Virus record (IMG/VR): IMGVR_UViG_3300033067_001144 | DNA: 64,000 nucleotides | DNA from: an uncultured virus (IMG/VR IMGVR_UViG_3300033067_001144) | Taxonomy: Duplodnaviria > Heunggongvirae > Uroviricota > Caudoviricetes | Reading direction: 5' to 3' (one strand) | Shown here: positions 889 through 64,000 of the stretch, piece by piece | How positions within the stretch are numbered: position 1 is the first letter of the stretch | Layout of the letters: every line of letters begins with the position of its first letter | The notes under the pieces: model-generated | What the model saw: the letters and a program-made list of their open reading frames with translations, nothing else | What the model was told of the DNA's origin: nothing | Databases searched by the model: none | Made by a program: the position numbers and the translations under genes

Positions 889-1149
889 ATGCCTGAATAC
901 CCGAGCATTCCCGACGTCACGTTCCGCCCGATCCCGACCTACCACAGCGGCTCTCGCTCCTACGCGATCTCAAGTGATGGTCGCGTGTGGATCGGAGAAG
1001 GCCGTTCTTGGACCCCTGTTACTCCGTTCATTCCTGGCTTCGTGTTTCTGCGGGGTGGGGCCAACCCCGAGAGCACGACACGACTAGCCATTGCCGATTT
1101 GTACCGCGCAGCCTTTCACCGCGACCTTCCCAAGGAGCCTTCCCGATGA
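889..1149 (+). CDS. Small NUMOD4-like protein with no HNH domain
   Basis: FRPIPTY...YAISSDGRVW...LYRAAF resembles NUMOD4; its stop overlaps the next start (ATGA). Confidence 0.5.
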   Translation: MPEYPSIPDVTFRPIPTYHSGSRSYAISSDGRVWIGEGRSWTPVTPFIPGFVFLRGGANPESTTRLAIADLYRAAFHRDLPKEPSR

Positions 1150-3778: not shown

Positions 3779-4057
3779 ATGTCCCTCGCGACCCTGCTCG
3801 ACATCGGAGAAGCCATTCGTCTCTCCGGGGCCGACGACCCGGCCAACGCGGTCGGCTTCTCCTTCTCGCTCGCTCCCAAAGACGCAACCAACCCCGATGG
3901 GGAGTGGAGTGGCTCGGTGAGCATTCTCGTGCAGAACGCACACAACCCGAAGGAAGTCGGAGCAGGGTTTCGCGAGGACGTGATTGGGACCGACCGTGCC
4001 GACGTAGAGCAGAAGCTCGCAGCCATCCTTCGTCCGTTTCGGAGCAAGGCCCCGTGA
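3779..4057 (+). CDS. Hypothetical protein
   Basis: AGGAG then ATG; fills the gap between thyX and topA. Confidence 0.7.
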   Translation: MSLATLLDIGEAIRLSGADDPANAVGFSFSLAPKDATNPDGEWSGSVSILVQNAHNPKEVGAGFREDVIGTDRADVEQKLAAILRPFRSKAP

Positions 4058-5961
4058 CCAGCGCCCTCGTCGTCATCGAATCCCCCGGCAAGAAGCACAC
4101 GTTGGGGGAGGTTCTCCGTCGGTACGATCCGAAGACGAAGTGGGTGGTACTCGCAACCAAGGGTCACCTTCGGGACCTTCCGAAGAAGCACCTCGGGGTG
4201 GCAACCGACGCGGGCTTTACGATTCAGTGGGTGTCGAAGAACCCTGGCTTCAAGACGCACCTTCGCAAGGTACTTGGGGACATGGATCGCGTGTACCTCG
4301 CCTCCGATGCCGACCGAGAGGGAGAAGAGATCGCAGCCGCGGTGGAGTCGTTCCTTCCCAAGAAGCTCTCGATCCCCGTGCAGCGGCTTCGCATTCGAGC
4401 CATCACGGAAGAGGGAGTTCGACAGGCCTTTCTCGCGCTCAACGAGAACGACACGATCGACCGCAACCTCGTCGCAGCGCAGCATGCGCGTCGGGCTCTC
4501 GACCGCCTATTCGGCTACACCCTCAGTCCCAAGTGCTGGAGGTTTCTGGGCCCTGGGATGGCCACGGGCCGGGTGCAAGCCTGTGTGCTTCATGCGTTGG
4601 TGGAGCACGCACACGATCGACTCGCGAGCCACCGAGCGGAAGAGATCACCGAGGTTCACGTTCCGCTACAAGGAACAACGGTGCAAGCGCATGCAGGCCC
4701 GTTCGAGGACCCACAGGACGCGAACAAGCTCCTCAAGCACATCGCGCAGAATCCTACATCCCCTGTGCTTCGCACAAGCACTCGGGTTGAGGCCCCTCCG
4801 CGGCCCTGCACGACCGCCTCTATTCTCCGTGCTGCAGGGGCTTGGAAGCAAGACCCGGGCTCGGCACAACGGGACCTCCAAGCCCTATACGAACGCGGGC
4901 TCATCACCTACCCGCGCACGGACAACGCACAGATCACTTCGCAAAAGTTCCTGACGGCTGCGAAGGCCTACGTCAAAGCCCAGGACACAAAGTGGTGGCA
5001 CGGTCCCCACGCACCCCCGAAGCAAGGCAAGATCGGTACCGCGTCGTCGGAGGCGCACGAGGCCGTACGACCCACGGCCCTGTCGATCTTCCCGTCGCAT
5101 GCGAAGGTGAAGAGTCTGCCCCCGCAGCAAGTTCGCATGTATCGGCACGTGTGGGCCACGACAATCGGTTCGCTTGGACACGTCGCTCAGTGTGAAGAAA
5201 CGATCGCGATCTGGAAGACTCCGCACGGGCAGCTTCACGCGACGTTCTTTCGCTACACGGATCGCGGCTACCACGATCCCTCATTGGGCCTCTTCGCACG
5301 GGGTGAATCTGTGCTTCCGACGGAGCTCGATCTCGTGCTCAAGGATTCACAAGTCGAGACGTTCGAGAAGCCTCCAATCCCGCATCACACTCCCGCAGCC
5401 GTGGTGAAGTGGATGGAGAAGCAGGGGGTGGGCCGACCCGCGACCTACGCAGCCACCCTCGATCGCCTCCTCTGGCACAAGGTCATCTGGAAGGACACGC
5501 ACGTCGGGACCAGTGCACGCGGGGTGCTGCTTGACCAGTTCCTGCAAGACACGCTCTCGAAGCTGCTCGACCCCGAGTTCACCGCACGGATGGAGCGCGA
5601 CTTGGACCGCGTAGCTCTGGGGTCGAAGAGCTACGAAGCCATTGTCGGCAAGCACTGGGAGTGGCTGCAACGTCACCTTCCCGTTCAAGCCGTGATGGGT
5701 CCGAAGTGTCCGGGGTGCTCCAAGCCGTTGCGCCTCAAGGTTACACGCTCCTCGGCTCCGTTCGGGTACTGCGGCTCGTGCAAGAAACAGCATGATCTCG
5801 CGTGGTCGAAGAACCACAGCGCGAAGCTCCTCCCGCTCCAGCCGAAGCGCTACTGCCCGCAGTGCAAAGCCTCGCACAAGCACACGTTGCGCGCGGTACG
5901 CGGGCTCGTGATGAGCACGTGCGCGTCCTGCAAAACCCAACACACGGTGGATCGCCTCTAG
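4054..5961 (+). CDS. topA: DNA topoisomerase type IA
   Basis: TOPRIM motifs IESPGK, KGHLRDL, ASDADREGEEIA; GRVQ; catalytic ITYPRTD; AHEAVRPT; GRPATYA; C-terminal CxxC zinc ribbons. Confidence 0.95.
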   Translation: MTSALVVIESPGKKHTLGEVLRRYDPKTKWVVLATKGHLRDLPKKHLGVATDAGFTIQWVSKNPGFKTHLRKVLGDMDRVYLASDADREGEEIAAAVESFLPKKLSIPVQRLRIRAITEEGVRQAFLALNENDTIDRNLVAAQHARRALDRLFGYTLSPKCWRFLGPGMATGRVQACVLHALVEHAHDRLASHRAEEITEVHVPLQGTTVQAHAGPFEDPQDANKLLKHIAQNPTSPVLRTSTRVEAPPRPCTTASILRAAGAWKQDPGSAQRDLQALYERGLITYPRTDNAQITSQKFLTAAKAYVKAQDTKWWHGPHAPPKQGKIGTASSEAHEAVRPTALSIFPSHAKVKSLPPQQVRMYRHVWATTIGSLGHVAQCEETIAIWKTPHGQLHATFFRYTDRGYHDPSLGLFARGESVLPTELDLVLKDSQVETFEKPPIPHHTPAAVVKWMEKQGVGRPATYAATLDRLLWHKVIWKDTHVGTSARGVLLDQFLQDTLSKLLDPEFTARMERDLDRVALGSKSYEAIVGKHWEWLQRHLPVQAVMGPKCPGCSKPLRLKVTRSSAPFGYCGSCKKQHDLAWSKNHSAKLLPLQPKRYCPQCKASHKHTLRAVRGLVMSTCASCKTQHTVDRL

Positions 5962-7729: not shown

Positions 7730-10123
7730 ATGAGTCGTATTGATCCTGGGGCCCTTGCGGCCAAGATTCGCGAGATCGGTAAGAAGGTCGACAACGAGCC
7801 GATCTCCCTGGAACGTGGTAGCTACGTGTCTGGTACGATCAGCACGGGCTCGCTGATCGTGAACCTGATGTTCGGGGGTGGTGTTCCGCCTGGCAAGTGG
7901 ACCACGGTGTGGGGCCCCGAGATGTCGGGCAAGACCACGATGACTATGAGCACGGTCGCGCAGGCTCTCCGTGGGGATGACCCCACCCCGGTCATTTACT
8001 TCGACCATGAAGCTGCGATGGATCCGATCTACGCAGCCAACTTGGGGATTCGCACGGCCTCGAAGAACGATCGTACGAAGCAGAACCCCTACTTCACATA
8101 CACGCAGCCCACAACGGGTGAGCAGACGTACCGCATGATCCTCCGCATCCTCAACGAGATGCCGGACTTCGTGGGGGAGCCGAAGGCGGGCAGGCCCCGG
8201 CCGTCCATTCTCTTCGTAATCGACAGCCTCGCGGCCATGAGCCCCGAGGTGCTGATCGAAGAGGACGAGAAGAGCGCGATGGCCCAAGGTGGCCGCATGC
8301 ACTCGGACTACATGCGTCGCATCAAGGCCATCCTCGGTCGTAAGAACGGCTCAATCTTCGCGACGAACCAGCTCCGTGTGAAGCCCGGGTTCTGCTTCGA
8401 CTACAGCACACGTGTTGTTCTCGCAGACGGAACCACAGAGCGCATCGGAGTCATCGTCAAGAATCGACTCCCCGTAGAGGTGATGTCTTTCGACCCCGAG
8501 ACCAACAAGGTTGTTCCTCGCAAGGTCGTCGGTTGGTTCCGCAATGGCTATGCAGACCACTTCCTCTCGTTCAAGACGGAGAACGCGTCTGGCTTGAACG
8601 GTTACACGGACTGGGCTTGCACCCCGGATCACGACATCTTTACGCCTGAGGGTGAGAAGAAAGCTCGTGACCTGAAGGTGGGGGACCTCGTGCTAGGTCG
8701 CGGGCAATTTGCGCTCAACAAGCTCCAGCGCTCCGTTGCTTACGGATCGATTCTCGGAGATGGAACGCTGCGGAAGCACTCTCCCCACAAGGTGGAGCTT
8801 CGCATCGCTCACGGTCCTCAGCAAACCGAGTACCTCAAGTGGAAGCGTACGCTGTTCGGGGATCTCGCCTCTGATCTCCACGTACACACCAAGGATGTTC
8901 TGGGTTTCACGGTGAGCCCCTCTGCGGATCTTCTGGACGTGTACGACGAGGCTTATCCCTCTCGTGGTGTCCGGGGTCTTCCTCGGAAGATGCTCAAGAA
9001 GATGGACCTGTTGGCCATGGCCATCTGGTACATGGACGACGGAACGTTTGTAGCGCCTAAGAAAGGGTGGTCCCTGAACGGCCGCAGCTCCATCTCCTGT
9101 GTCTGGTTGTCGGATGAGGACGCAAAGAAGCTCAGCAAGTCCCTTGTCAAGCTGGGCCTGCCTGAGCCTCGTCTGTACACGTACTTCCACAAGAAGTCTG
9201 GCAAGATGATCAAGCGCCTTCAGTGGAACGGAAAGGCTAGCCGAGCGTTCCAGGAGAAGATCGCTCCGTACATCCATCCTAGCATGGAGCACAAGATCCA
9301 TGCGGATCTTCGCGGTCGATTCGATGAGATCGCTCCGCAGAAGGCCAATCATCGTGAGAAGATGATCCCGGTCAAGATTCTCGCGATTCAGAAGAAGCCG
9401 AAAGGCAAGTACCCGTATCAGATGGAGAAATTCGACCTCGAAGTCGAAGGCCATCACACGTACATGGTTGGTAGTGGAGGGGTCGGGGTCCATAACTCCA
9501 TGGGCGATCCCAGCTACGAGCCGGGTGGTGAAGCTGTCAAGTTCTTCGCGGACTTGAAACTCTTCATGCGCGCGGTTCAGAAACCGAAGAACGAGCGCGG
9601 CATGGACATGCGCGTCATCAACCTCAAGACGACCAAGAACAAGATGTTCCCTCCGTTCAAAGAGGAGAAGGAAAAGCTGCACGTCGCGTTCGGGCGTGGG
9701 TTCGAGCGCTACTACGACGGCCTCGGTTGGCTGGAGATGATGAACCGCGTGCACGTCGTCGGCCGCGGGGACAAGCGCAAGAAGAGCGAACTCAAGTTCG
9801 GGGACAAGGCCATCGACGGTTCGTACGGTACGAACGAGCTGATCGAGCTGCTCTACACGAACAAGTTCCGTCGCTTCGCGGATCGCTACATGGCCAGTGG
9901 GGATGCGTTCCGGGACTACCTGAGCAACACCAGCGTGGCTCCCGATGCGACGGTCAACCCCGAGGATGCGGGCTTGAACTTCGAGGCTCAGAAGGCTGAG
10001 CGCAACAAGGAAAAGCTCAAGGCGCTGGAGAAGCGGGTGAAGGGTGTCCCCGACGAGCCGGAGCCCACGACTCCTGGCAAGCGCGGCAAAGAGAAGCCAG
10101 CCAAGAAGAAGAGCAAGAAGTAG
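7730..10123 (+). CDS. recA: RecA/UvsX-family recombinase, intein-containing
   Basis: ISTGS, Walker A GPEMSGKTT, YFDHEAAMDP, Walker B VIDSLAAM, TNQLR, PGGEAVKFFA, KNKMFPPF. Confidence 0.93.
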   Translation: MSRIDPGALAAKIREIGKKVDNEPISLERGSYVSGTISTGSLIVNLMFGGGVPPGKWTTVWGPEMSGKTTMTMSTVAQALRGDDPTPVIYFDHEAAMDPIYAANLGIRTASKNDRTKQNPYFTYTQPTTGEQTYRMILRILNEMPDFVGEPKAGRPRPSILFVIDSLAAMSPEVLIEEDEKSAMAQGGRMHSDYMRRIKAILGRKNGSIFATNQLRVKPGFCFDYSTRVVLADGTTERIGVIVKNRLPVEVMSFDPETNKVVPRKVVGWFRNGYADHFLSFKTENASGLNGYTDWACTPDHDIFTPEGEKKARDLKVGDLVLGRGQFALNKLQRSVAYGSILGDGTLRKHSPHKVELRIAHGPQQTEYLKWKRTLFGDLASDLHVHTKDVLGFTVSPSADLLDVYDEAYPSRGVRGLPRKMLKKMDLLAMAIWYMDDGTFVAPKKGWSLNGRSSISCVWLSDEDAKKLSKSLVKLGLPEPRLYTYFHKKSGKMIKRLQWNGKASRAFQEKIAPYIHPSMEHKIHADLRGRFDEIAPQKANHREKMIPVKILAIQKKPKGKYPYQMEKFDLEVEGHHTYMVGSGGVGVHNSMGDPSYEPGGEAVKFFADLKLFMRAVQKPKNERGMDMRVINLKTTKNKMFPPFKEEKEKLHVAFGRGFERYYDGLGWLEMMNRVHVVGRGDKRKKSELKFGDKAIDGSYGTNELIELLYTNKFRRFADRYMASGDAFRDYLSNTSVAPDATVNPEDAGLNFEAQKAERNKEKLKALEKRVKGVPDEPEPTTPGKRGKEKPAKKKSKK
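8393..9496 (+). mobile_element. Intein with LAGLIDADG endonuclease in RecA (368 aa)
   Basis: Starts CFDYSTRVVLADG; CTPDH; GSILGDG and AIWYMDDG; ends FDLEVEGHHTY...VHN followed by Ser+1. Confidence 0.95.
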
Positions 10124-11612: not shown

Positions 11613-12191
11613 ATGCCCCCGCGTGACAAGCCTCTGTTCCTGACGGCACGACCGCAGGGAGACGAGACGGTCGATCCCTCCGATCGTTGGTTCGGGATGA
11701 GCGAGCGCATTCTCCCCTTCTCGCTCCGCCTACCCCAGGACTACCCCTCCGTCCCTCCCGCATTGCTCGACCTGGAGTGGAGGTACTTCCACACCTTCGC
11801 GAAGGCCGTCGCGGATCATGCGAGTGTCGACATCATCAGCGAACGCTCGTTCAAGAAGATTCGACCCGAGGCCAAGTTCAAGCGCCTCATCATGGTCATG
11901 TCGTTGGAGAATCTGCACACGGACCCAGGTTCGGGGGTGTTCACGTGGGAAGGCTTTCGCGTGCATGTGGGAGAGTTCCCTGTCGTCAAATGCTTGTTCC
12001 GCGCGAAGCCTTCCACAGGTCAGGGGGCGATTCTGAGCGTCAGCTTCTTTGAAGCGCACCGCAACGACTACACGACGGTTGCGTTCTCGAATCCCCTCAC
12101 GTGTCGCGAGGACGCGCTCATGATCCTGTTCACATACTTTCAGCGCGAGGGTGTGTTGGCTCCGCGGAAAGACCTGGACCCTGAGGAATGA
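11613..12191 (+). CDS. Hypothetical protein
   Basis: AGGAG RBS; overlaps the sbcD start. Confidence 0.7.
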   Translation: MPPRDKPLFLTARPQGDETVDPSDRWFGMSERILPFSLRLPQDYPSVPPALLDLEWRYFHTFAKAVADHASVDIISERSFKKIRPEAKFKRLIMVMSLENLHTDPGSGVFTWEGFRVHVGEFPVVKCLFRAKPSTGQGAILSVSFFEAHRNDYTTVAFSNPLTCREDALMILFTYFQREGVLAPRKDLDPEE

Positions 12192-13249
12192 GGTTCCTGC
12201 ACACCGGAGACCTCCACATTGGGGCCTCGAAGCACGTCGTCTTGAAGTATCTCAAGCGGCAAGAGTCCATGCTCGACCAACTCATCGACCACGCACGGGA
12301 GCAGAAGGTCGACGCGGTGTTGATGGCGGGGGACATCTTCGACAGCGCGGACGTGACGCACGAAGAGCGCTCCCTCTTCACACGCAAGCTGCTCACGCTC
12401 GATTCGTTCGTCCCGGTGTTGTGCATTCCCGGCAATCACGACGAGGTGAGCCCCGGCCTGACGACACTGCACCCGTACGCACTCATGACGCGTGCGGGTC
12501 GGTTTCGTCAGTCCTACGTGGTCGAGCAGACGACGCTCGTGCAGATTCAAGACACGCTGTTCGTGCTCCTCGTGAGCAAGGGAGCGGACTTCAAGAGGCA
12601 CCTCCGCGCTACGCTCAAATCTCTCAGGCGCTCGTCCCTGGAGATCGAGTACAACCACCTCGTCGTGGTGGTCCATCAGACCGTCAAAGGGGGGCTCGCG
12701 GACAACGGCCACACGCTGCCCGATGGGGTGGACTGGAAAGACTCCGTGCCCTCCGACGTGCCCGTGACGTACTTTGCTCTGGGGGATCTCCACACCCACC
12801 AGAAGGTGGGTCGCTGCGCGTTCTACTCGGGCTCTCCCGTGATGACGAAGTTCGATCCGGTGGTGGCTCCGCACGGAGTGCTGCTGGTCGACACGAACGA
12901 CCCGAAGCATCCGACGATGCTTCCCATCGAGAGCCAGCAATTCCTCATCGTGAACGCGTCGGACGAGAAGGCGCTGCGCAAGGCCGAGACCGACGGCCAC
13001 CTCGTCAAAGCACGACTCTCGAAGAATGCAGACGAGAAGGAGCTGGCTCGCGTCCGCAACTCCAAGGCCGTCGTGAAGACGGACTATGCGAAGGTGGACG
13101 TCGACCTTGGAGAGCTCCGCGTCGGTACGTCCCTCGACAAGGACGTGTCCCGTGCGATGAAGCGTCGGGGCCTCAACAAAGCCGACCGCGCACTCGGTCT
13201 CGAACTGTTGCGTCAGCATCGTCCCGTGTCTCACGATTTGGCTGAGTAA
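12188..13249 (+). CDS. sbcD: SbcD/Mre11-like metallophosphoesterase nuclease
   Basis: HTGDLH, AGDIFD, IPGNHD, YFALGDLH, YSGSP. Confidence 0.92.
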   Translation: MRFLHTGDLHIGASKHVVLKYLKRQESMLDQLIDHAREQKVDAVLMAGDIFDSADVTHEERSLFTRKLLTLDSFVPVLCIPGNHDEVSPGLTTLHPYALMTRAGRFRQSYVVEQTTLVQIQDTLFVLLVSKGADFKRHLRATLKSLRRSSLEIEYNHLVVVVHQTVKGGLADNGHTLPDGVDWKDSVPSDVPVTYFALGDLHTHQKVGRCAFYSGSPVMTKFDPVVAPHGVLLVDTNDPKHPTMLPIESQQFLIVNASDEKALRKAETDGHLVKARLSKNADEKELARVRNSKAVVKTDYAKVDVDLGELRVGTSLDKDVSRAMKRRGLNKADRALGLELLRQHRPVSHDLAE

Positions 13250-13272
13250 GCTCCCTGTAAAAGGTCTGCACC

Positions 13273-14439
13273 ATGAACGATCTCAAGCTCACGCTCAAGT
13301 ACCGGCCGAAGACTCTCGACGAGATGATGGGTCAAGAGCTCGTCACCGGGCAGATCAGGGGCGCCCTCAAGCCGGACGCAAAGGGTCGCTTTTCGGTTCC
13401 GCAATCGATCCTCATCACGGGGCCTTGGGGCACGGGTAAGACGACGCTGGCTCGCATCATTGCACGCATGCTCAACTGCACCGAGAAAGGTCCGATGGAG
13501 GCCTGCGGTACGTGCCGTTCGTGCAAGATTCTGTTGCGCGGTCTGGCACACCCCGACGTACTTGAAGTGAACGCAGTTGCGGACTCCAGCATCGAGGACA
13601 TGAGGCGCATCATCGAGTTGGAGAAACTGTCTCCCTCGCATCGATACAAGGTCATCATCCTCGATGAAGCGCACGGCATCGTGCAGAAGTCTGCGAGCGC
13701 GTTCCTCAAGCCGTTCGAGGAGCCGTCTCCGAAGACGGTGTTCATCCTCTGCACGACCAACCCCGAGAAGTTGCTCGGGACCATCATCTCGCGGGCCACC
13801 AAGTTCAACCTCGGGCTGATTCCTCCCGAAGACTTCGCTCCCCGCCTCAAGTTCATCGCGAAGGAAGAGGGCTTTCGGCTGCGCACCGAGCACGCGGTGG
13901 CCATTGCGACGGCTGCACAGGGTCACGGCCGCGATGCGCTGGAGATCCTTCAATCGGTGCGGGATCACGTTCGTGGTACCGACAAGGAGCTTTCGAGCGA
14001 CGCACTCTCCAAGCTCGTGACGAGCGTTATCGAGAAGGCCGCACAGCTCTCTCCCGTGCAACTCTGCCCCGGCTACATGCGTCACCTTCTCTCGGGGAGC
14101 TACGGAGCGTTGGAGATCGCGGGTCGCGTCGAATCCCACGAATACTTCCTCGGCCTCGCGATCAACTTCACGAAGCAACTCATCTTTCAGCGCAAGGTTC
14201 CCAAGCGCACCGACGGTGCCTTCCGAGGCCACACCATGGAGTACGCCAAGGACTTCGACGTCGAGCACCTGACCGAGGTGTTCGCGCTGTTGACGCGAGG
14301 CCAACGCGATCTCAAGTCGTACCTCATTGCTCCAGCCGACGCACTCGACATGGTGACGTTGGAGATTCTCAACGTGACGCGGAAGTGGCCCAGCCTCGAA
14401 TCCCGCGAGAAGCAGTTGCCGAAGGCTGCATCGAAGTGA
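13273..14439 (+). CDS. dnaX: DNA polymerase III gamma/tau-like clamp loader subunit
   Basis: KYRPKT, GPWGTGKTTLARI, LNC...CGTCRSC zinc site, ILDEAH, LKPFEEP, FILCTT, TIISRA. Confidence 0.9.
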   Translation: MNDLKLTLKYRPKTLDEMMGQELVTGQIRGALKPDAKGRFSVPQSILITGPWGTGKTTLARIIARMLNCTEKGPMEACGTCRSCKILLRGLAHPDVLEVNAVADSSIEDMRRIIELEKLSPSHRYKVIILDEAHGIVQKSASAFLKPFEEPSPKTVFILCTTNPEKLLGTIISRATKFNLGLIPPEDFAPRLKFIAKEEGFRLRTEHAVAIATAAQGHGRDALEILQSVRDHVRGTDKELSSDALSKLVTSVIEKAAQLSPVQLCPGYMRHLLSGSYGALEIAGRVESHEYFLGLAINFTKQLIFQRKVPKRTDGAFRGHTMEYAKDFDVEHLTEVFALLTRGQRDLKSYLIAPADALDMVTLEILNVTRKWPSLESREKQLPKAASK

Positions 14440-14750
14440 GACGGCTTCCTGTGGTCACAGACCCCGACGGCACGGTGCACGACCCCGAATGCAAGCTGTG
14501 TTCGGGAGCCTGCTGTCGCGCCTTCGAGGAGATTCCGCTCACCAAGGAAGAGCACCTGTCAGGGCGGTATATCTCCGAGGAGCCCAAACCTGGGGTGTAC
14601 CAGCTCGCGGTGGGCTCGAATCGTATGTGCCCGCATCTGGGGTTCGACCACCGCTGCTCGGTCTACAGCGAACGGCCCCGAACGTGCCGTGTGTACTCGT
14701 GTCGCGACGACCGACGCATCACGTGGGAAATGAAGTTCCGACCCTTCTGA
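14436..14750 (+). CDS. YkgJ-like Cys-cluster (CxxCxxxCC) metal-binding protein
   Basis: CKLCSGACC...CPHL...CSVYSERPRTCRVYSC. Confidence 0.8.
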   Translation: MRRLPVVTDPDGTVHDPECKLCSGACCRAFEEIPLTKEEHLSGRYISEEPKPGVYQLAVGSNRMCPHLGFDHRCSVYSERPRTCRVYSCRDDRRITWEMKFRPF

Positions 14751-14757
14751 GGCAACC

Positions 14758-15006
14758 ATGACGACCCCGATCTCCGACGATACCGAATGCTTCACGTCTC
14801 ACGAACAGCTCATGAAGGAGCTTAGAGGCGTAGAGCAGAAGCTTGCGCTTCGACATGGGATTCGCTGTGAAGATGAACAAACCATCCGAGACGCGCTTGT
14901 TATGCTGGATCTCAACAATCGACTCCCCGAAGACGAACTCGTCGCGGACTGGCACGAGCTTATGGCTGCTCGTCATAGCCACAAAATCCGGGGAGCAGCG
15001 TGCTGA
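14758..15006 (+). CDS. Hypothetical protein
   Basis: GAGG RBS, small ORF within the operon. Confidence 0.6.
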   Translation: MTTPISDDTECFTSHEQLMKELRGVEQKLALRHGIRCEDEQTIRDALVMLDLNNRLPEDELVADWHELMAARHSHKIRGAAC

Positions 15007-17279
15007 CGCTCAAAGAACTCAATGCACGTAACGCCTATTGCTACAAGAAGCTCCACGTTCCCCTCGACAAGCAAGGGTTCGTGTTCGTGTCGGGGCAGAA
15101 CCGGGACGAACCTAGGCGATCGAACGGGGACTACGAATCGAACGGCTCGGGCAAGACGAAGATCTTCGAGCTGTTGACCCACGCGATTCACCAGACGACG
15201 AGTGTGGGGGACTCGAAGAACGATCTGCTTAACAAGTTCCGGCCGAAGGACTTCGAGCTCTCATTGGACTTCGATCGAGACGGGATTCCCTACCGCGTCG
15301 AGCAGTACCGCAAGCACAGCCAGTATAAGACGTGCCTGCGATTGACCGAGAACGGTACCCCGATTCACGCGGAGGGGACGCAGGCGATCAAGCAGACGCA
15401 GCAGCGTGTGGAAGCTCGGGTCGGCCTTTCCCTCGGAGAGTGGTACGGCTTCGTCTACCTCGCGCAGAACTCTACACACGCGATGGTGGCTGGTACTCCG
15501 GCTGAGAAGAAGCGCTATCTGAGTCGCGTGTTCGGAGTTGACGTGCTCGATGCCTACGACAAGAACCTCGCGGTGTTCCTGTCCGGTCAGAAGGACACCA
15601 CGAATCGTCTATCGGAGACTCTCGACCGCATCGAGGCTCTGGAGAAGGAAGAACGAGAACAGAAGGCCCCGACGAAAGAAGAGCTCGCGTCTCTGCGAGA
15701 CCGACGCACGGAACTCCAGGACCGCCTCGACACCCTCTCCGCGGAGCTCGCACAGCAAGCTCAACTGCACAAGCGTGAATCCCTCCTCCCGAAGCTCTCC
15801 AGTCACGGCTACACGTTGCAGGGGTGGTCCGCGGAGAAGCTCGCGAAGGAGGCCTCCGACGTCAAAGCCAACGTTGATCGCCTCCAGAACTCCGTGCGCA
15901 CTGAAGAGCGACGAGCCGAGCTGAAGGCACAACTCCCGAAAGACGCGCAACGGCCCGATCTTCCCGCTCTCGAAAAGGCCCTGCGCAAGGCCAAGTCCAG
16001 ACTGCAAGAGATCAAGGACCAGCGCACCGCCTACGAACGTTGGAAGCAACTCCAGCAAGAACGTACGCAGCTCTCGTCGCTTGATTCGGAGACATTGCAG
16101 GCTGTTGATCCCGATCGCTCCTACCGAGAAGAGCTCTCCAAGCTTGATGGGGAGCGTGCTGTCCTCCGACAGCAGCTTTCGGTTCTTCAACGACTCGACG
16201 GCAAGGCTACGTGTGAGGCTTGCCTGAGTCCAATTGACGCGAAACATACGCACGCATCCGTCGAAGAGAAAGAGACTCGGCTTCGCAAGATCGAAGGCAA
16301 ACGCAGCTCGCTTCAAGCCAAGGAGCAAGAGCAACTGGCTCTCCGGGATCAAGCGAAGCTCTACACAGGGTGGAAGAAGCGATCCGCTTCCGCCAAAGCT
16401 GTGGATCGCGTATCGTCCTCCGACGTCTCTGCGGCTGAGTCTTCCCTGGAAGCTGCTGAGAAAGAGCATCGAAAGGCTGCTGACCTCATGCGCGTGTGGG
16501 AGGCTCTGGACAGGCTTCCCTCGGCCCCTTCGTCTTCGCTTGACGACCTCAAGCGCGACGCAAAGCTCGAAGAAGAAACGTACGATCTGCTACGCGAAGC
16601 GAAGGCGTACGATTGGACGCTCAAGCTTGCAGACGTGCAAGAACTCACCGAACAGCAGAAGAAGCTCCAGCGGAAGCTGCTCAAGGCCCAGGACGAACTG
16701 ACGACGGCCAAGCTCCGTAAAGAACAAGCACGCACCCGTGCCGAGGAGATATCAGACCTCAAGCGCAAAGCGGAAGTTCTACAGGCGGATACGCACCGCA
16801 CCGAGGTAGCCGAAGTCTTGCGGGTCTCCCTGCAAGACGTGAAGCTGGCTCGACTGCGCGAAGCGACCCGCATCCTGACCACGGTGCTTCCGGGCTACAT
16901 CAGTGCCTTCTTTCGAGGAGGCCACATCAAGCTGCACATCGACGAGTCCCGCGAGGACAAGCTCGATCTGCTGTTCGAGAAGGGGGGCAAGATCATCAAC
17001 CTACGCAGCATTTCAGGCGGTCAAGCCAAGCGGCTCTCCGTAGCCATCATTCTGAGCTTCACCAAGCTCACGGCTCAGACCGTCAACGTCCTCGTGGCCG
17101 ATGAGCCGTACGGGGGCCTCGACCCTATCTCACGCGGAGTGTGCTTCGAGCTATTGCGGGACATTGCTGTTCCGACGACGCTGCTCACGGGCCACGAATC
17201 CGACGTGTCCAAACAGCGCTACGACCAACGATGGACGGTCGTGATGAAAGACCACGTTTCGACCCTGCATCGAGGATGA
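15000..17279 (+). CDS. sbcC: SbcC/Rad50-like SMC ATPase
   Basis: Walker A NGSGKT, Q-loop YLAQ, coiled coils with central CEAC zinc hook, signature SGGQ, Walker B VADEP. Confidence 0.92.
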   Translation: MLTLKELNARNAYCYKKLHVPLDKQGFVFVSGQNRDEPRRSNGDYESNGSGKTKIFELLTHAIHQTTSVGDSKNDLLNKFRPKDFELSLDFDRDGIPYRVEQYRKHSQYKTCLRLTENGTPIHAEGTQAIKQTQQRVEARVGLSLGEWYGFVYLAQNSTHAMVAGTPAEKKRYLSRVFGVDVLDAYDKNLAVFLSGQKDTTNRLSETLDRIEALEKEEREQKAPTKEELASLRDRRTELQDRLDTLSAELAQQAQLHKRESLLPKLSSHGYTLQGWSAEKLAKEASDVKANVDRLQNSVRTEERRAELKAQLPKDAQRPDLPALEKALRKAKSRLQEIKDQRTAYERWKQLQQERTQLSSLDSETLQAVDPDRSYREELSKLDGERAVLRQQLSVLQRLDGKATCEACLSPIDAKHTHASVEEKETRLRKIEGKRSSLQAKEQEQLALRDQAKLYTGWKKRSASAKAVDRVSSSDVSAAESSLEAAEKEHRKAADLMRVWEALDRLPSAPSSSLDDLKRDAKLEEETYDLLREAKAYDWTLKLADVQELTEQQKKLQRKLLKAQDELTTAKLRKEQARTRAEEISDLKRKAEVLQADTHRTEVAEVLRVSLQDVKLARLREATRILTTVLPGYISAFFRGGHIKLHIDESREDKLDLLFEKGGKIINLRSISGGQAKRLSVAIILSFTKLTAQTVNVLVADEPYGGLDPISRGVCFELLRDIAVPTTLLTGHESDVSKQRYDQRWTVVMKDHVSTLHRG

Positions 17280-46223: not shown

Positions 46224-47615
46224 ATGAGCCACTTCGTTCGCTGCTTTGAAGCCCTGGAAGCCCTGGAGACGACTCCGGGCCGCAACGACAAACTCGCGCT
46301 GTTGAAAGGCGAGAAGAAGAACCCCGTCCTCAAGACGCTCATCAATTGGGCCTACAACGGGGACAACTATCACACGTACCCGGACGCTCTGCCGAAGAGC
46401 ACGAAGATCGGGATTCCTTCGCAGCTCGCAGACGTGGGCTACAAGGACACCTTTGCAGCCTTCGAGAAACTGTTGCGTTCGCTCCGCGAGCGCGCAGTGA
46501 CGGGCAACGCGGCGCAGACTGCGGTCCGGGATTTCTTTTTCAAGCTGAACTCCCTCCTCTACAAATGGTTCCATCGCGTCATGCATCACGATCTGCGGAT
46601 CGGGTGCAACGTCTCGCTGTTCAACCAAGTGTGGGAAGGAGACGAGCTCTGGCCCGACCGCGTGGTGGGTGACGAGGCGGACGAGTTCCGCTACCCCGGC
46701 TGCCAGAACAGCTTGGAGTACGTGGAGTGGCCGGGGTGGGGCTACGGATTCGTCGAGCCCAAGTTCGACGGCTACCGACTCAGCGCGCTGGTCAGCGCAC
46801 GCAAGGTCGTGTTCTTCTCCCGGCAAGGCCACCACGAGCCCTACACGACCAATCTTCGCGTCATTGCCGAGAGGCTTCTCGACCTGGGCTTCAAGAACTG
46901 CATGGTCGATGGGGAGATCCTGTGGGGAGACTCGTGGTGCAAGACGGGCGGGATCAAACGCAAGAACCCGAGCCCCGAGCAGCAGGCGGAGATCGACGCG
47001 AACGCGATCTTCCACGTGTTCGATTGGGTGCCGATGGACGTAACGACGGGGGAGCTGCTCAAGCCAGAACTCACCCTCGAAACGCGACGTGCCGAGCTGT
47101 TCAAGCGCATCGGCAACGCACGAACCGAATGCGTCCGCACGACGAAGCTCTGGAAGGTCTGGGGACCCAAGGGTCTCGAAGAAGCCACGCGCAGGGCCCG
47201 TGCGATGGGGGCTGAGGGCTCGATGCTGAAAGACCCCAACTCCCCCTACGAGATTCAGACGGGCTCTCGTAGGGCCCCTTCGTGGTTCAAGGTCAAGCCT
47301 GTCCGCGACGTCACCTACAAGGTCGTCGATTTTCTCGAAGGCACGGGCCGCAACGAGGGTCGTCTAGGCTCGTTCATCTGCGAGAACGAGAAGGGAGATC
47401 GCGTGCGCGTCGCGGGCATCACGGACGCGGAGCGCGAGAAGTATTGGGCCATGCGGAAGAAGCTCGTGGGCTTCTACCTCGACGCGAAGGAGCAGGACCA
47501 AGACGGGGTGGCGGTGAGCAGGCACCCGCAGTTCCTCCGCTGGAGAGACGACCGCAACCCGCGCGTGATCCCGCGCTACGGCAAGCCCGAGAAGTCCAAA
47601 GCGAAGACGAAGTAG
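46224..47615 (+). CDS. lig: ATP-dependent DNA ligase
   Basis: Motif I EPKFDGYR, VDGEI, FHVFD, EGSMLK, WFKVK; OB domain EGTGRNEGRLG...RHPQFLRWRDD. Confidence 0.93.
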   Translation: MSHFVRCFEALEALETTPGRNDKLALLKGEKKNPVLKTLINWAYNGDNYHTYPDALPKSTKIGIPSQLADVGYKDTFAAFEKLLRSLRERAVTGNAAQTAVRDFFFKLNSLLYKWFHRVMHHDLRIGCNVSLFNQVWEGDELWPDRVVGDEADEFRYPGCQNSLEYVEWPGWGYGFVEPKFDGYRLSALVSARKVVFFSRQGHHEPYTTNLRVIAERLLDLGFKNCMVDGEILWGDSWCKTGGIKRKNPSPEQQAEIDANAIFHVFDWVPMDVTTGELLKPELTLETRRAELFKRIGNARTECVRTTKLWKVWGPKGLEEATRRARAMGAEGSMLKDPNSPYEIQTGSRRAPSWFKVKPVRDVTYKVVDFLEGTGRNEGRLGSFICENEKGDRVRVAGITDAEREKYWAMRKKLVGFYLDAKEQDQDGVAVSRHPQFLRWRDDRNPRVIPRYGKPEKSKAKTK

Positions 47616-58753: not shown

Positions 58754-59008
58754 ATGAGCGACGCAGACAACGACTTGCCAGAAGAACAGCTTAAGTGCGA
58801 CCACGGTGTGACCTTCGATCTCGAAGAGGCCAAGAAGATTCTGGCAGACGCGGAGACCAAAGGTCCGTACAGCTTCGTGGCGGGATCTCCCGGTCACGGC
58901 ACGATCCGCAAGCGCTTTCCTCGACTCTGCGGCCCCTGCCCGAAGGGCTGCGGTTTCAACGGCATCGCGTACGCCTCCTTCGAGCACTACACGTATGGAG
59001 ACTGGTGA
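58754..59008 (+). CDS. Small Cys-containing hypothetical protein
   Basis: CDHG...CPKGCG; AAGGA RBS. Confidence 0.65.
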   Translation: MSDADNDLPEEQLKCDHGVTFDLEEAKKILADAETKGPYSFVAGSPGHGTIRKRFPRLCGPCPKGCGFNGIAYASFEHYTYGDW

Positions 59009-59370
59009 TGAGACGCTTCGAAGAGCTCTCGAACGAGAGTCTGATTGCAGAATCCAGAAGGTGGGGTGGGGAGATCGTGGAGGAGCTTTCCCTGCGGCTA
59101 GAAGCGGCCACTCGTCCGTGGAGGTTCCATCAGCGAGATATCCCGAAAGGAACGCTCGGAGAACTCTCCAAGGTTCGTGAGGAGCTTGAAGAGGCCGAGG
59201 ATGCGTTGGAGCAAGGCCAAGAGCTCATGTTCGCGCTGGAGTGTGCCGACATGATCGGGGCAATTGAAATTGCCGCGCAGAAACGTGGGTTCACACTCGC
59301 TCAGCTTCTAGCCTACAAGACACTACGATCCCGAATTGCCACGGAGGCAGTCCATGACCACGAAAAGTAA
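59008..59370 (+). CDS. MazG/HisE-like all-alpha NTP pyrophosphatase
   Basis: KVREELEE...ECADMIGAI (EExxE...ExxD). Confidence 0.6.
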   Translation: MRRFEELSNESLIAESRRWGGEIVEELSLRLEAATRPWRFHQRDIPKGTLGELSKVREELEEAEDALEQGQELMFALECADMIGAIEIAAQKRGFTLAQLLAYKTLRSRIATEAVHDHEK

Positions 59371-60091
59371 ATCAGCTCTGCAGGACCACGAGCAGAGTGT
59401 CGTGAACGGAGTTAGGTCGAGGTCTGACGCCATTGTCGACAGCATGGCTGCAATGGTTCACCATGAGGCTAAGACCATTCTGCGGGACGCTGGCTTCTCG
59501 GAGCTTCCGTACCTTCCAACCTTGATCCGCTCCGAAGTGATGGAGCGGCAAGGAACCGTGCCTGAAGATCGCGTCTTTCGCGTGAGCCCTACGCACGTTC
59601 TGACAGGTTCGGCTGAGCAGTCATATCTCGATATGATCATGGGGCTGGACGTTACTCCGTGGGGCCCAAGCGACGGGCCCGAGGTCTATCGGCACTTCGC
59701 GACAACGCAATGTTACCGTCGAGAGCCTTGCCCTCAAGGCCTGCACACGCTCTACGAGTTCACGAAGACCGAGCAAATTGGACTGGCAGAGCGGCCAGCC
59801 GACGCGATGGACCTCCTCGACCAGATGATCTTTAACAGTGAGAAGCTGTGCCGAGAATACAAGATCAAGACACGGCTCGTCGACAACAGCCGCGGAATGC
59901 CATCGTACGCAACACGCTCCTGCGACCTTGAGGCGGAGACTCAAGCCTACGGCTGGATGGAGATCGGCACCTACACGAACTTCGGCACGGGCCAGAGCCA
60001 GCGGTTTGGCTGGACCGGAATGCCTTACTCCGTGTTTGGTACGATGGTAGCGACACCTCGCTTCCTGATCCCTCTCCTCGAACGCATGTAA
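59354..60091 (+). CDS. Seryl-tRNA-synthetase-like catalytic core lacking the N-terminal coiled-coil arm
   Basis: LTGSAEQ, motif 2 CYRRE...EFTKTEQ, DLEA...WMEIGTYTNF...QSQR, motif 3 GTMVATPRFLIPLLE. Confidence 0.8.
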   Translation: MTTKSKSALQDHEQSVVNGVRSRSDAIVDSMAAMVHHEAKTILRDAGFSELPYLPTLIRSEVMERQGTVPEDRVFRVSPTHVLTGSAEQSYLDMIMGLDVTPWGPSDGPEVYRHFATTQCYRREPCPQGLHTLYEFTKTEQIGLAERPADAMDLLDQMIFNSEKLCREYKIKTRLVDNSRGMPSYATRSCDLEAETQAYGWMEIGTYTNFGTGQSQRFGWTGMPYSVFGTMVATPRFLIPLLERM

Positions 60092-60106: not shown

Positions 60107-60400
60107 ATGAGCATTCTCGGACCCATCCTCGACTGGATCGACTCGCTCTCTTCCAAGCGGACGTTTGAGGTGACGATGCCGGAGAGCGTCTACGCTCGCC
60201 TGGAGCACATTCGCGCACTTACACACTCCCACTCCGTTACTAGCGTGGTGCGCAAAGCCCTGACACTGTACGACACGCTCGTTCCGTTCGCGAAAGACCC
60301 CGCGTTCACGATCACCATTCGTCACAAGGACGGTTTGGAGCGAGAGCTCCGACTCGATGACGAGGCCTTCTTCGTTATCATCGTCAAGAACGCAAACTGA
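60107..60400 (+). CDS. Ribbon-helix-helix-like DNA-binding protein
   Basis: RTFEVTMPESVYARLE...SVTSVVRKALTLY. Confidence 0.65.
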   Translation: MSILGPILDWIDSLSSKRTFEVTMPESVYARLEHIRALTHSHSVTSVVRKALTLYDTLVPFAKDPAFTITIRHKDGLERELRLDDEAFFVIIVKNAN

Positions 60401-60411
60401 AAGGTACAGCC

Positions 60412-61881
60412 ATGAAGACCTTTGCTATCCGCCTTGGGTTCGCGTGCAACAGCTCCAGCACGCACAGCATCCTCCTGCTCAACGACGCGAGTGGCCTGGA
60501 GACCATCCCTAGTTACGGCTTTGGGGACTACGGCTGGGACTGCTTTCAGCTCGTCACACGACAAGACAAGTCGGACTACCTCGCGGCTCAGATGCTGAGC
60601 ACGCTGCAGACGTTCAAACAGGCTGGTCAGTTCCCGATGATGGTCCAAGAGCTGTTGCCAGAGGCAACCTCCATTCCTATGAAGGAGGATGGGTCCTACG
60701 AGTACGGCTACGGCGTCGACCACCAGTCGGTGCGATCGTTCCCCGTCTCGTGGGACGAGACGATGTTGCACTTGGACTGGTTTCGAAGCTTCCGGGACTT
60801 CGTACTCGGACCGAACGTCGTTATCACGGGAGGCAACGACAACGGAGATGAGAAGGAGTCGATTCCTGCCGAGAATCGACCCAAGCGGAACATCGCTCCG
60901 TATTCACCGCTGGACGATCGGAACAGCCATGGCGTAGCTCGCTACGACGCACCCTCCGACAGTTGGGTGCTGTTCAATCGATCAACTGGCTTTCGTGTTC
61001 GTATGACCTTCAACGACACGCTGCCCGAGATCGTCTACTCGGAGACCCCTGAGCTAGTGGATGTGAAGATCACGGACAAGTGCGACACGGGTTGCACGTA
61101 CTGCTACATGGGAAGCACTCCGAGTGGGGCTCACGCGTCCAACGCGGCCCTCGACAAGCTGGCCAAGGAGCTGGCTGAGATGCGAGTGTTGGAGGTTGCT
61201 ATTGGTGGCGGAGAAGCAACTCTGCACCCGTACCTTTCGGTGTTCGCGCAGTCCCTCCGCTCGAACCATGTCGTGCCAAACATCACGACGCGCAACGTCG
61301 ACTTCGTGCTGGGCCTCGTCAAAGATCGTGGTCCGTGGGGTGCCGTCGCGTTCTCAGTCGACACCGCGGAGCAGGTTACGGCCCTTGCGGAACTTGTGGA
61401 AGCGACCCGTAAGAGCAGCGGGACGGATCGCTACGCTCCGAGCATCTCGATCTCGATCCAATACGTCGTCGGTCTGACGACGAACGAGGCCATCCTTCGA
61501 GGAATCTTCAAGGCGTGCAGGGACGCTCGCTTCCGCATCACACTCTTGGGCTACAAAACCACGGGCCGTGGGTTGCTCTTCAAGCAGAAAGCAGCGCTTG
61601 ACTGGTTCCACGTTGCTAAGAAAGAGAACATGACGCATCTCCTCGGCATCGACACGACCCTGGCTCGCGTCCACGTCGAGGGCCTCGTGCAGAAGGGGGT
61701 CGACCCTCGCACCATCACGCAGCACGAAGGGCAGTTTTCGTGCTACGTCGACGCGGTAGCGGGCCGCATGCGCATGAGCTCCTACGACAATCAAGAGGGC
61801 ATCGACATCACGAAGCGCTCCCTCCACGACGCCTGGGACATGCTCCACGGAAAAGACCCGTCTGCAGGGGATGCCTCGTGA
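60412..61881 (+). CDS. Radical SAM enzyme with an N-terminal NSSSTHS-motif domain
   Basis: CDTGCTYC, EVAIGGGEATLHP, PNITT, FSCYVDAV. Confidence 0.85.
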   Translation: MKTFAIRLGFACNSSSTHSILLLNDASGLETIPSYGFGDYGWDCFQLVTRQDKSDYLAAQMLSTLQTFKQAGQFPMMVQELLPEATSIPMKEDGSYEYGYGVDHQSVRSFPVSWDETMLHLDWFRSFRDFVLGPNVVITGGNDNGDEKESIPAENRPKRNIAPYSPLDDRNSHGVARYDAPSDSWVLFNRSTGFRVRMTFNDTLPEIVYSETPELVDVKITDKCDTGCTYCYMGSTPSGAHASNAALDKLAKELAEMRVLEVAIGGGEATLHPYLSVFAQSLRSNHVVPNITTRNVDFVLGLVKDRGPWGAVAFSVDTAEQVTALAELVEATRKSSGTDRYAPSISISIQYVVGLTTNEAILRGIFKACRDARFRITLLGYKTTGRGLLFKQKAALDWFHVAKKENMTHLLGIDTTLARVHVEGLVQKGVDPRTITQHEGQFSCYVDAVAGRMRMSSYDNQEGIDITKRSLHDAWDMLHGKDPSAGDAS

Positions 61882-63339: not shown

Positions 63340-63362
63340 TCCACGCACGCAAGGTACCTTTG

Positions 63363-63394
63363 GTGGGGTGGGGTTCAGTCGAGCCCCACCCCAC
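63363..63394 (+). terminator. GC-rich hairpin, possible terminator
   Basis: GTGGGGTGGGGTTC-AGTC-GAGCCCCACCCCAC. Confidence 0.55.
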
Positions 63395-63425
63395 ACGTGT
63401 TTCCCAAACCTATGGACGAATCTGC

Positions 63426-64000
63426 ATGAAGAAGTCGCTGCGCAAAGCCATTCAAGCCCACACCGAACGCGAGGTACCCTGCACCGAGAACGGTCTCTAC
63501 CACGAGGTGATTCACGGTAAGTCACACCGTGTGCTGCGCTCCCTTCCCGACCACTGCATTGACGCGTATGTGACGGACCCTCCGGCGGGCATCGAGTTCA
63601 TGCAAACATCGTGGGATAGTTTTGGAGGTCGCAACGAAACAGCGTCAGGCCAACGAGATACTGCGCAGTGGAACGTGAAAGGGAAGGACAGCAAGCACGC
63701 GAACATTCCCAAGATGCGTCTGACGACGAGCCAGGGCTCCTTTCATAAGGGAGCTCGTGAAGCCTTCATCAAGGCTATGCACAAGGTCTTCAAAGAGGTT
63801 CTCCGCGTGCTCAAGCCGGGGGCCTACGCGCTCGTGTGGGCCATTCCTCGTACGTCCCATTGGACGACCACCGCCTTGGAAGACGCTGGCTTCGAGATTC
63901 GAGACATTCTCACGCACGTTAATGTCCAGGGCATGCCAAAGGGGCAAGACCTGGGTCGTATGATCGATCGGAAGCTCGGGAACGAGCGGAAGGTTATTGG
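63426..64000 (+). CDS. Second DNA amino-methyltransferase, 5' part (runs off the window; absent from the ORF track)
   Basis: Manual translation: IHGKSHRVLRSLPDHCIDAYVTDPPAGIEFM...EVLRVLKPGAY...ALEDAGFEIRD. Confidence 0.88.
   Translation, partial: MKKSLRKAIQAHTEREVPCTENGLYHEVIHGKSHRVLRSLPDHCIDAYVTDPPAGIEFMQTSWDSFGGRNETASGQRDTAQWNVKGKDSKHANIPKMRLTTSQGSFHKGAREAFIKAMHKVFKEVLRVLKPGAYALVWAIPRTSHWTTTALEDAGFEIRDILTHVNVQGMPKGQDLGRMIDRKLGNERKVI

Follow-up and report, generated by a model that had tools for sequence, protein, structure and literature searches.

A compact, arm-less seryl-tRNA synthetase-like core in phages and its MazG/HisE-like partner gene

What might a seryl-tRNA synthetase (SerRS) do once the parts that hold tRNA are gone? 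The question is raised by a 64,000-nucleotide stretch of DNA from an uncultured virus of the Caudoviricetes (IMG/VR record IMGVR_UViG_3300033067_001144; the whole stretch is called the window below). At 59354-60091 it encodes a protein, here termed mini-SerRS, that corresponds to the complete catalytic core of a bacterial-type SerRS with the adenylate-site residues kept, and the gene immediately upstream encodes a small MazG/HisE-like protein. The reading that we favor, at a probability of about one half, is that mini-SerRS forms seryl-adenylate (Ser-AMP) as a ligase that works with a nucleoside triphosphate (NTP) pyrophosphatase and would act on a nucleotide-type acceptor other than tRNA.

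A SerRS catalytic core without its tRNA-binding parts

The open reading frame (ORF) of mini-SerRS spans 59336 to 60091 on the plus strand and is intact from the ATG at 59354, giving 245 residues. Class II motif 1 is represented by Pro55, motif 2 by Y121-R122-R123-E124, and motif 3 by A233-T234-P235-R236. The original prediction, made from the sequence alone, was of a SerRS core that lacks its arm and retains the arginines of motif 2 (YRRE) and motif 3 (ATPR), and the translation, profile matches, and fold agree with it. Two substitutions that it listed are likewise borne out: S86-A87-E88 replaces TxE, and V227-F228-G229-T230 replaces LNG(S/T).

The resemblance to SerRS greatly exceeds what chance would give. 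The match to TIGR00414 serS (E 3.1e-9) scored 36.3 bits against a curated cut-off of 301.65, and that to Pfam tRNA-synt_2b was sub-threshold at 23.6 bits (gathering score 29.3); the 14 sequence matches in the PDB were all to SerRS except the weakest (Lmo0794, E 0.23). Alignment of the family profile with a canonical SerRS profile (hhalign) gave a probability of 99.94 % and an E-value of 8.5e-37 over 216 columns, placing mini-SerRS on columns 162-399 of 429; the core covers ~55 % of canonical SerRS. An AlphaFold2 model had a mean predicted confidence (pLDDT) of 92.9, and the PDB matches listed for it by Foldseek were all SerRS (best E 7.8e-17; query TM score 0.69-0.81). One of these, 9qof, is by its title an arm-deletion mutant of Escherichia coli SerRS bound to a seryl-adenylate analogue, so that Ser-AMP can be held by an arm-less core. 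The nearest clusters in the ESM Atlas scored 0.89, which serves as a lead only.

What is lost is equally specific. The coiled-coil tRNA-binding arm, Seryl_tRNA_N (PF02403), had no match in mini-SerRS. Aligned with nine canonical SerRS, the protein lacks about 150-155 first residues (the arm and the start of the core) and has a motif 2 loop 5 columns shorter, in keeping with the shortened loop first reported; it is also without a ~13-residue insertion before the last core ('HTLNG') strand and without a ~25-residue C-terminal tail. On the other hand, P55, E88, C120, R122, E124, F136, K138, E140, D191, E203, R217, A233, R236, and E243 are invariant across 11 mini-SerRS and the nine canonical enzymes. 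We take the residues common to the two groups to be the motif 1 Pro, the TxE Glu, the motif 2 Arg, Glu, and Phe, the KxE Glu, the Mg/ATP Glu, and the motif 3 Arg, presumably making up the ATP and serine site seen in Thermus thermophilus SerRS structures. The protein thus has the fold, class II motifs 1-3, and adenylate-site residues in common with the bacterial-type SerRS catalytic domain (TIGR00414; 1ser and 1sry from T. thermophilus, 1wle and 7u2a from mitochondria, and 9qof), and differs from canonical SerRS in lacking the arm, loop residues, insertion, and tail, in its SAE and VFGT variants, and in having a MazG/HisE-like partner.

An exhaustive search of 1.84 billion representative sequences returned 51 matches to mini-SerRS, about 30 of them clusters of 215-250 residues; canonical-length SerRS appeared only at E-values of 1e-5 to 1e-3. 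The family alignment was built from 26 of the 51 matches, with fragments below 200 residues and canonical-length proteins left out. S86, R122, D191, E203, T230, P235, and R236 are invariant throughout these 26 and all present in the window protein, which deviates at 2 of 22 nearly invariant columns (G90S and S206T) and matches the family motifs GSAEQ, CFRxE with a short loop, EFxKxE, DxE..T..YGWxE, and TxxAxPR, as well as the phage family phrog_4806 (6.6e-14). A protein word search found only two near-identical relatives, and a relative 82 % identical to the window protein has the same frame and length.

A phylogeny with SerRS, a check that the original prediction had proposed, was computed on 52 rows, leaving out P0029 and all fragments; the 11 canonical rows are those that happened to be among the matches. 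The canonical SerRS were split from the mini-SerRS and short forms with 97 % support (SH-aLRT, an approximate likelihood-ratio test), the whole mini clade receiving only 83 %, and the window protein and its 82 %-identical relative formed the first branch of that clade. By sequence comparison, then, mini-SerRS is a distinct, mostly viral family of 215-250-residue proteins in which the window protein is deep-branching; with these 11 canonical rows the tree does not place the origin of the family within SerRS.

Two cultured phages carry a member: Bacillus phage G (gp287, labelled 'histidyl tRNA synthetase') and Bacillus phage vB_BpuM-BpSp (gp011, labelled 'seryl-tRNA synthetase'), both labels being putative annotations only. 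These proteins are 30.6 % and 31.0 % identical to the window mini-SerRS over 93 % and 83 % of the query, respectively, and both belong to the same pair as in the window, with the MazG-like gene immediately upstream (gp287/gp286 and gp011/gp012; PHROG 4806 and PHROG 6408). Compared with them, the window protein is the earliest branch and has a ~10-residue insertion at residues 100-110, and its partner has a 38-residue N-terminal extension. On a 485-kb huge-phage contig, mini-SerRS was read as two overlapping ORFs (L009, 5921-6513), which suggests a frameshift or a sequencing error; the stop-to-stop frame at a second listed locus of the same contig (L027) spans profile positions 54-221 only.

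A near-obligate partner gene and its fusions

The MazG-like gene was under-weighted in the original prediction; it is the key conserved partner, and its pairing with mini-SerRS is near-obligate. In all 15 loci found via mini-SerRS (14 contigs, several near-identical) a MazG-like gene lay ≤1.3 kb upstream, directly adjacent to or overlapping mini-SerRS in nine. Starting instead from the MazG-like gene, 32 of 34 viral loci had a mini-SerRS profile match within 4 kb; 12 of the 34 are on contigs already known from the mini-SerRS side, and the two misses are L048 and L024, the latter on a contig that stops 119 nt past the gene. The mini-SerRS of the 20 new positive loci were shorter and more divergent (usually 183-216 residues), and gene order was sometimes reversed. 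Prokaryote genomes, one for each of 185,579 species, held only seven module loci, all on contigs of metagenome-assembled genomes (MAGs), and the pair was present in all seven (six clear, one a 1-kb fragment). Among 50,697 phage records, the MazG-like protein matched only records that also hold a mini-SerRS. Apart from weak opposite-strand shadow ORFs of the pair, no third gene family was common to more than three of ~12 distinct loci.

In the window, the MazG-like gene ends in a TAA at 59368-59370 and overlaps mini-SerRS by 17 nt, the overlap having been noted from the start; its own ATG overlaps the stop codon of the preceding ORF (TGATG). The protein matched phrog_6408 at 3.8e-19. The family invariants are H42, G49, G52, S55, K56, E59, E60, E63, D66, E79, D82, and G85 and A86, among which the acidic EExxE...ExxD cluster (E59, E60, E63, D66, E79, D82), of the kind that binds metal on a helical hairpin in the MazG/HisE superfamily, aligns with the motif of the HisE structure 2a7w, also the best PDB profile match (E 0.046). 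PRA-PH was the commonest Pfam match, in 10 of 12 members, with all hits below the cut-off (best E 0.0019). Foldseek with a model of the protein gave nothing at E ≤0.001 (E-values above 2), and a wide VIA-align search placed HisE and MazG chains at Z 5.5-6.3 (1yvw, 6.3; 3cra, 6.0) amid, and not above, many unrelated helical hairpins. The window protein carries a 38-residue N-terminal extension (59008-59121), with two low-confidence predicted helices, that is missing in the other 11 aligned members.

It had been asked whether this ORF supplies the missing arm in trans. It is not the missing arm: no part of SerRS resembles it (probability 0.5 % in hhalign against canonical SerRS).

Longer proteins with a MazG-like domain were sought in a search that scored only the 8,000 candidates sharing most words, and were typed with our own hidden Markov models (HMMs). 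Among the 62 resulting clusters, two joined MazG to mini-SerRS (P0070, P0106) and three joined the two in the opposite order (P0095, P0113, P0116); radical SAM domains were fused ahead of MazG in 20 and behind it in four. The remaining 33 had unassigned extensions, barring one nucleoside 2-deoxyribosyltransferase-like and one pentapeptide domain. The module-linked radical SAM proteins form one small family of ~255 residues whose similarity to NrdG activase, viperin, and MoaA models is generic only. Within the loci, a radical SAM-MazG fusion occurs in L050-L053; as a separate small gene, radical SAM stands between the pair in L008, L010 (where it is broken into two pieces), L011, and L014.

The radical SAM-MazG fusions are 331-333 residues long (L050-L054, on MAG contigs labelled Bacilli or Clostridia; P0076-P0096) and include many near-identical clusters, one with 13 member sequences; the three-part version seems to be common in some sampled communities.

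The window itself has a radical SAM gene two genes downstream of mini-SerRS. Its candidacy as the module-linked type was rejected: the HMM of the module-linked family had no match in the window, and the resemblance is confined to the CxxxCxxC region. Because it is of a different family, it is not counted in the module, of which it is a possible accessory.

The module in its genomic setting

The features of the module region are collected in Table 1. The window reads like a piece of a large phage genome: all ORFs treated as genes lie on the plus strand, G+C is 57-62 %, and the gene content includes a RecA/UvsX-like recombinase, SbcCD, a clamp loader, an ATP-dependent DNA ligase, ThyX, and a type IA topoisomerase. 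No tRNA genes and no Rfam families were found in it. Its DNA ligase is ≤30 % identical to any cultured phage record, and there is no close cultured relative.

Table 1. Coordinates of the module and adjoining features in the window
Feature	Position	Strand	Basis
MazG/HisE-like gene (putative small all-alpha NTP pyrophosphohydrolase), 120 residues, conserved core residues 40-115	59008..59370	+	phrog_6408, motif
Shine-Dalgarno sequence GGAGG, 6 nt ahead of the mini-SerRS ATG	59343..59347	+	sequence
Stretch shared by the MazG-like and mini-SerRS genes, 17 nt, translational coupling	59354..59370	+	coordinates
Mini-SerRS, 245-residue class II SerRS catalytic core without N-terminal arm	59354..60091	+	motifs, profiles, model
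97-residue ORF between mini-SerRS and the radical SAM gene	60107..60400	+	phrog_8557 (4e-5)
489-residue radical SAM protein, two genes downstream of mini-SerRS	60412..61881	+	PF04055 (9e-9); phrog_16999 (5.5e-29)

The 97-residue ORF had no homolog in any fetched locus and is not conserved with the module; for eight further ORFs of the window, no homolog was found in any fetched locus or protein. The neighbors of the pair vary from locus to locus and also include NAD-salvage enzymes, ADP-ribosylglycohydrolases, phosphatases, and DNA enzymes. An N6/N4 DNA methyltransferase gene (63360-63998, plus strand) lies downstream of the module and runs off the end of the window; L009 and phage G (gp294) also have a DNA methylase on the downstream side of the module.

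Several other observations concern the replication genes. The recombinase gene (7730-10123, plus strand; 797 residues) is split by an intein that carries a homing endonuclease of the LAGLIDADG type, its domains being RecA at 9-224, LAGLIDADG_2 at 334-470, and a weak Intein_splicing match. The ThyX (Thy1) domain falls in two stretches of a 927-residue ORF (987-3770, plus strand). The ORF greatly exceeds the usual length of ThyX, and a second intein or a fusion may be present. The type IA DNA topoisomerase (Toprim and Topoisom_bac) lies at 3904-5961 on the plus strand, in the phage replication region, and SbcD/SbcC, the clamp loader, and the ATP-dependent ligase are located at 12188-17279 and 46224-47615. 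On a 257-kb viral contig (L040, 1210-7450), a cassette of a Dam-type methylase gene, a MazG-like gene, and two tandem short mini-SerRS genes sits between two ORFs, one with the N-terminal part (PHP, NTPase) of DNA polymerase III alpha and the other with its C-terminal part (finger, HhH); the cassette seems to have split the polymerase gene.

Possible functions of the pair

A non-tRNA acceptor was one of the roles first suggested, and it fits best because the arm and part of the motif 2 loop are lost, the active site is kept, the partner is a putative NTP pyrophosphatase, and there are fusions to nucleotide-type enzymes. The intact core stripped of its tRNA-holding parts, the MazG/HisE-like partner, and the Rosetta-stone links to radical SAM together suggest transfer of serine to a non-tRNA acceptor and a substrate of nucleotide type. 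In such a scheme mini-SerRS, free-standing and probably dimeric, would convert serine and ATP to Ser-AMP and pyrophosphate, having given up the elements that presumably held tRNA-Ser (the coiled-coil arm, part of the motif 2 loop, and the C-terminal tail). The MazG/HisE-type protein would convert an NTP to a nucleoside monophosphate (NMP) and pyrophosphate, and so make or trim the partner nucleotide, which in some lineages may first be modified by a small radical SAM enzyme. Mini-SerRS would then pass the activated serine to the nucleotide-type acceptor rather than to the terminal adenosine of tRNA. We infer each of these elements: serine as the substrate, the dimer, catalysis by both proteins, and the identity of acceptor and product.

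Amino acid:[carrier protein] ligases stem from methanogen-type zinc-dependent SerRS and adjoin a carrier-protein gene. They are likewise arm-less SerRS-like cores that activate an amino acid for a non-tRNA acceptor, as mini-SerRS may do. In contrast to these enzymes, the listed sequence and fold matches of mini-SerRS are to bacterial, organellar, or eukaryotic-type SerRS, and its partner is a putative NTP pyrophosphatase; no carrier-protein domain was reported among the neighbors in the window or in 32 other loci. The carrier-protein version of the non-tRNA role is not supported. Puromycin biosynthesis, a pathway to an aminoacyl-nucleoside, runs from modification of an NTP through an NTP pyrophosphatase (Pur7) to an amino-acid ligase (Pur6). 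A radical SAM, MazG-like, and amino-acid ligase triad would follow the same three-step logic, as a pathway analogy only; the puromycin enzymes belong to unrelated families (Nudix and a different ligase). The HisZ/HisG/HisE system of histidine biosynthesis also couples a class II synthetase-like core with a HisE-type pyrophosphohydrolase, there acting on a nucleotide substrate, and the best sequence matches of the partner are to HisE and PRA-PH. HisZ, on the other hand, is HisRS-derived and without adenylation activity, according to the available text of a review of synthetase paralogs (PMC9437257); mini-SerRS descends from SerRS and keeps its catalytic residues, and near the module no HisG-like gene was found. 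The same text covers SerRS2, SLIMP, and the amino acid:carrier-protein ligases (Mocibob et al. 2010), and a phage mini-SerRS does not appear in it.

Several points weigh against a nucleotide-type, non-tRNA acceptor. The acceptor is purely inferred, and our search of the full-text literature turned up no functional or biochemical study of any family member. The MazG/HisE assignment draws on sub-threshold sequence matches and a motif, with fold searches that are compatible and not decisive. At the position of the second motif 2 Arg (canonical 'RvHQF'), the window protein has Thr. The radical SAM link is confined to a subset of lineages, and the window's own radical SAM protein comes from another family. 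Lastly, tRNA genes lie in the flanks of 9 of 37 loci, including tRNA-Ser in four (L003, L015, L026, L044), and recurring neighbors include an RNA ligase (L031, L042, L045), a PolyA_pol/CCA-type enzyme (L036), and KptA (phage G).

Such surroundings speak for the main alternative, in which the arm-less enzyme would still charge tRNA (host or phage tRNA-Ser, or another RNA 3' end) and could boost or protect serine charging during infection, with the MazG-like protein acting on the nucleotide pool. Besides the tRNA gene arrays in or beside which the module stands and the RNA-processing neighbors, to which a 3'-5' exoribonuclease in L010 can be added, the kept catalytic residues are as expected of a charging enzyme, and phage genome papers and records label such genes plain SerRS. 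In the available text of one such paper (PMC8953757), neighboring MazG genes g118 and g119 and a 'SerRS' g121, which may belong to the family, are annotated as ordinary; that phage was not among the tblastn matches of mini-SerRS. We nevertheless consider tRNA charging doubtful. The arm is missing, with no substitute for it in the upstream ORF, and the motif 2 loop is 5 residues shorter. In T. thermophilus SerRS this loop touches the acceptor stem, and recognition of long-arm tRNA-Ser needs the SerRS arm, whose deletion in the E. coli enzyme nearly abolishes charging. The tRNA-Ser genes near the module are of the ordinary long-arm type (87-97 nt), the window itself is without a tRNA gene, and charging would leave the NTP-pyrophosphatase partner and the radical SAM fusions unexplained.

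Ser-AMP could also be spent on a nucleotide. Canonical SerRS can form diadenosine tetraphosphate (Ap4A) from Ser-AMP and ATP, as in T. thermophilus, and mini-SerRS might similarly join Ser-AMP with ATP or another NTP to give an Ap4A-type dinucleoside polyphosphate or other nucleotide signal, the MazG/HisE-like enzyme shaping or limiting the product. Supporting this possibility, the partner's putative superfamily cuts nucleotide polyphosphate chains, and enzymes of nucleotide, NAD, and ADP-ribose metabolism abound in the neighborhoods. Synthesis and hydrolysis by one pair, though, resembles a futile cycle, and the strict conservation of the serine pocket (E88, E140, and the Ser/Thr before motif 3) would be needless, though still possible, were serine only a catalytic cofactor; we regard this role as improbable.

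A non-catalytic or regulatory paralog, for instance one that forms a heterodimer with host SerRS via the motif 1 interface and retunes host translation, is a very improbable alternative. The motif 1 helix and Pro55 are kept, and SerRS paralogs with regulatory roles exist; the text of the review cited above (PMC9437257) describes SLIMP, which heterodimerizes with mitochondrial SerRS, alongside HisZ with its absent adenylation activity. Such paralogs lose catalytic residues, whereas R122, E124, F136, E140, E203, and R236 are invariant family-wide in mini-SerRS, and the pyrophosphatase partner and the fusions would be left unexplained. Finally, a decaying remnant of a captured host serS, without conserved homologs, has next to no probability: the partial coverage of canonical SerRS and the score far under the serS cut-off would suit it, but the 51 matches with their clusters of uniform length refute it, as do the 97 %-supported branch that separates mini-SerRS and short forms from the 11 canonical SerRS, the intact frame with its own Shine-Dalgarno sequence and ATG, and the conserved partner gene and fusions.

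Returning to the ligase with a nucleotide-type acceptor, one rather unlikely elaboration is that the module is a phage small-molecule factory. A free nucleotide would here replace the terminal adenosine of tRNA to give a seryl-nucleotide, the NMP coming from the MazG/HisE-like enzyme and, in some lineages, being remodelled first by the fused radical SAM enzyme. The product might be a mimic of the aminoacyl-tRNA end or an amino-acid-nucleotide conjugate, directed against host translation or nucleotide-based immune signalling, or made for the phage's own nucleotide pool. The function is directly testable because the proteins are small and soluble-looking, the partners are defined, and the pair occurs in the cultured Bacillus phages G and BpSp.

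Members of the family have been mis-annotated as 'seryl-' or 'histidyl-tRNA synthetase' and counted as evidence of phage translation genes. Synthetase paralogs that left translation (AsnA, HisZ, EpmA, and the amino acid:carrier-protein ligases) have each revealed new chemistry. Mini-SerRS adds another lineage of SerRS origin, one that is mostly viral and occurs in many large and huge phages, and its genetic lock to a putative NTP pyrophosphatase, together with the radical SAM fusions, points to an undescribed amino-acid-nucleotide chemistry in infection.

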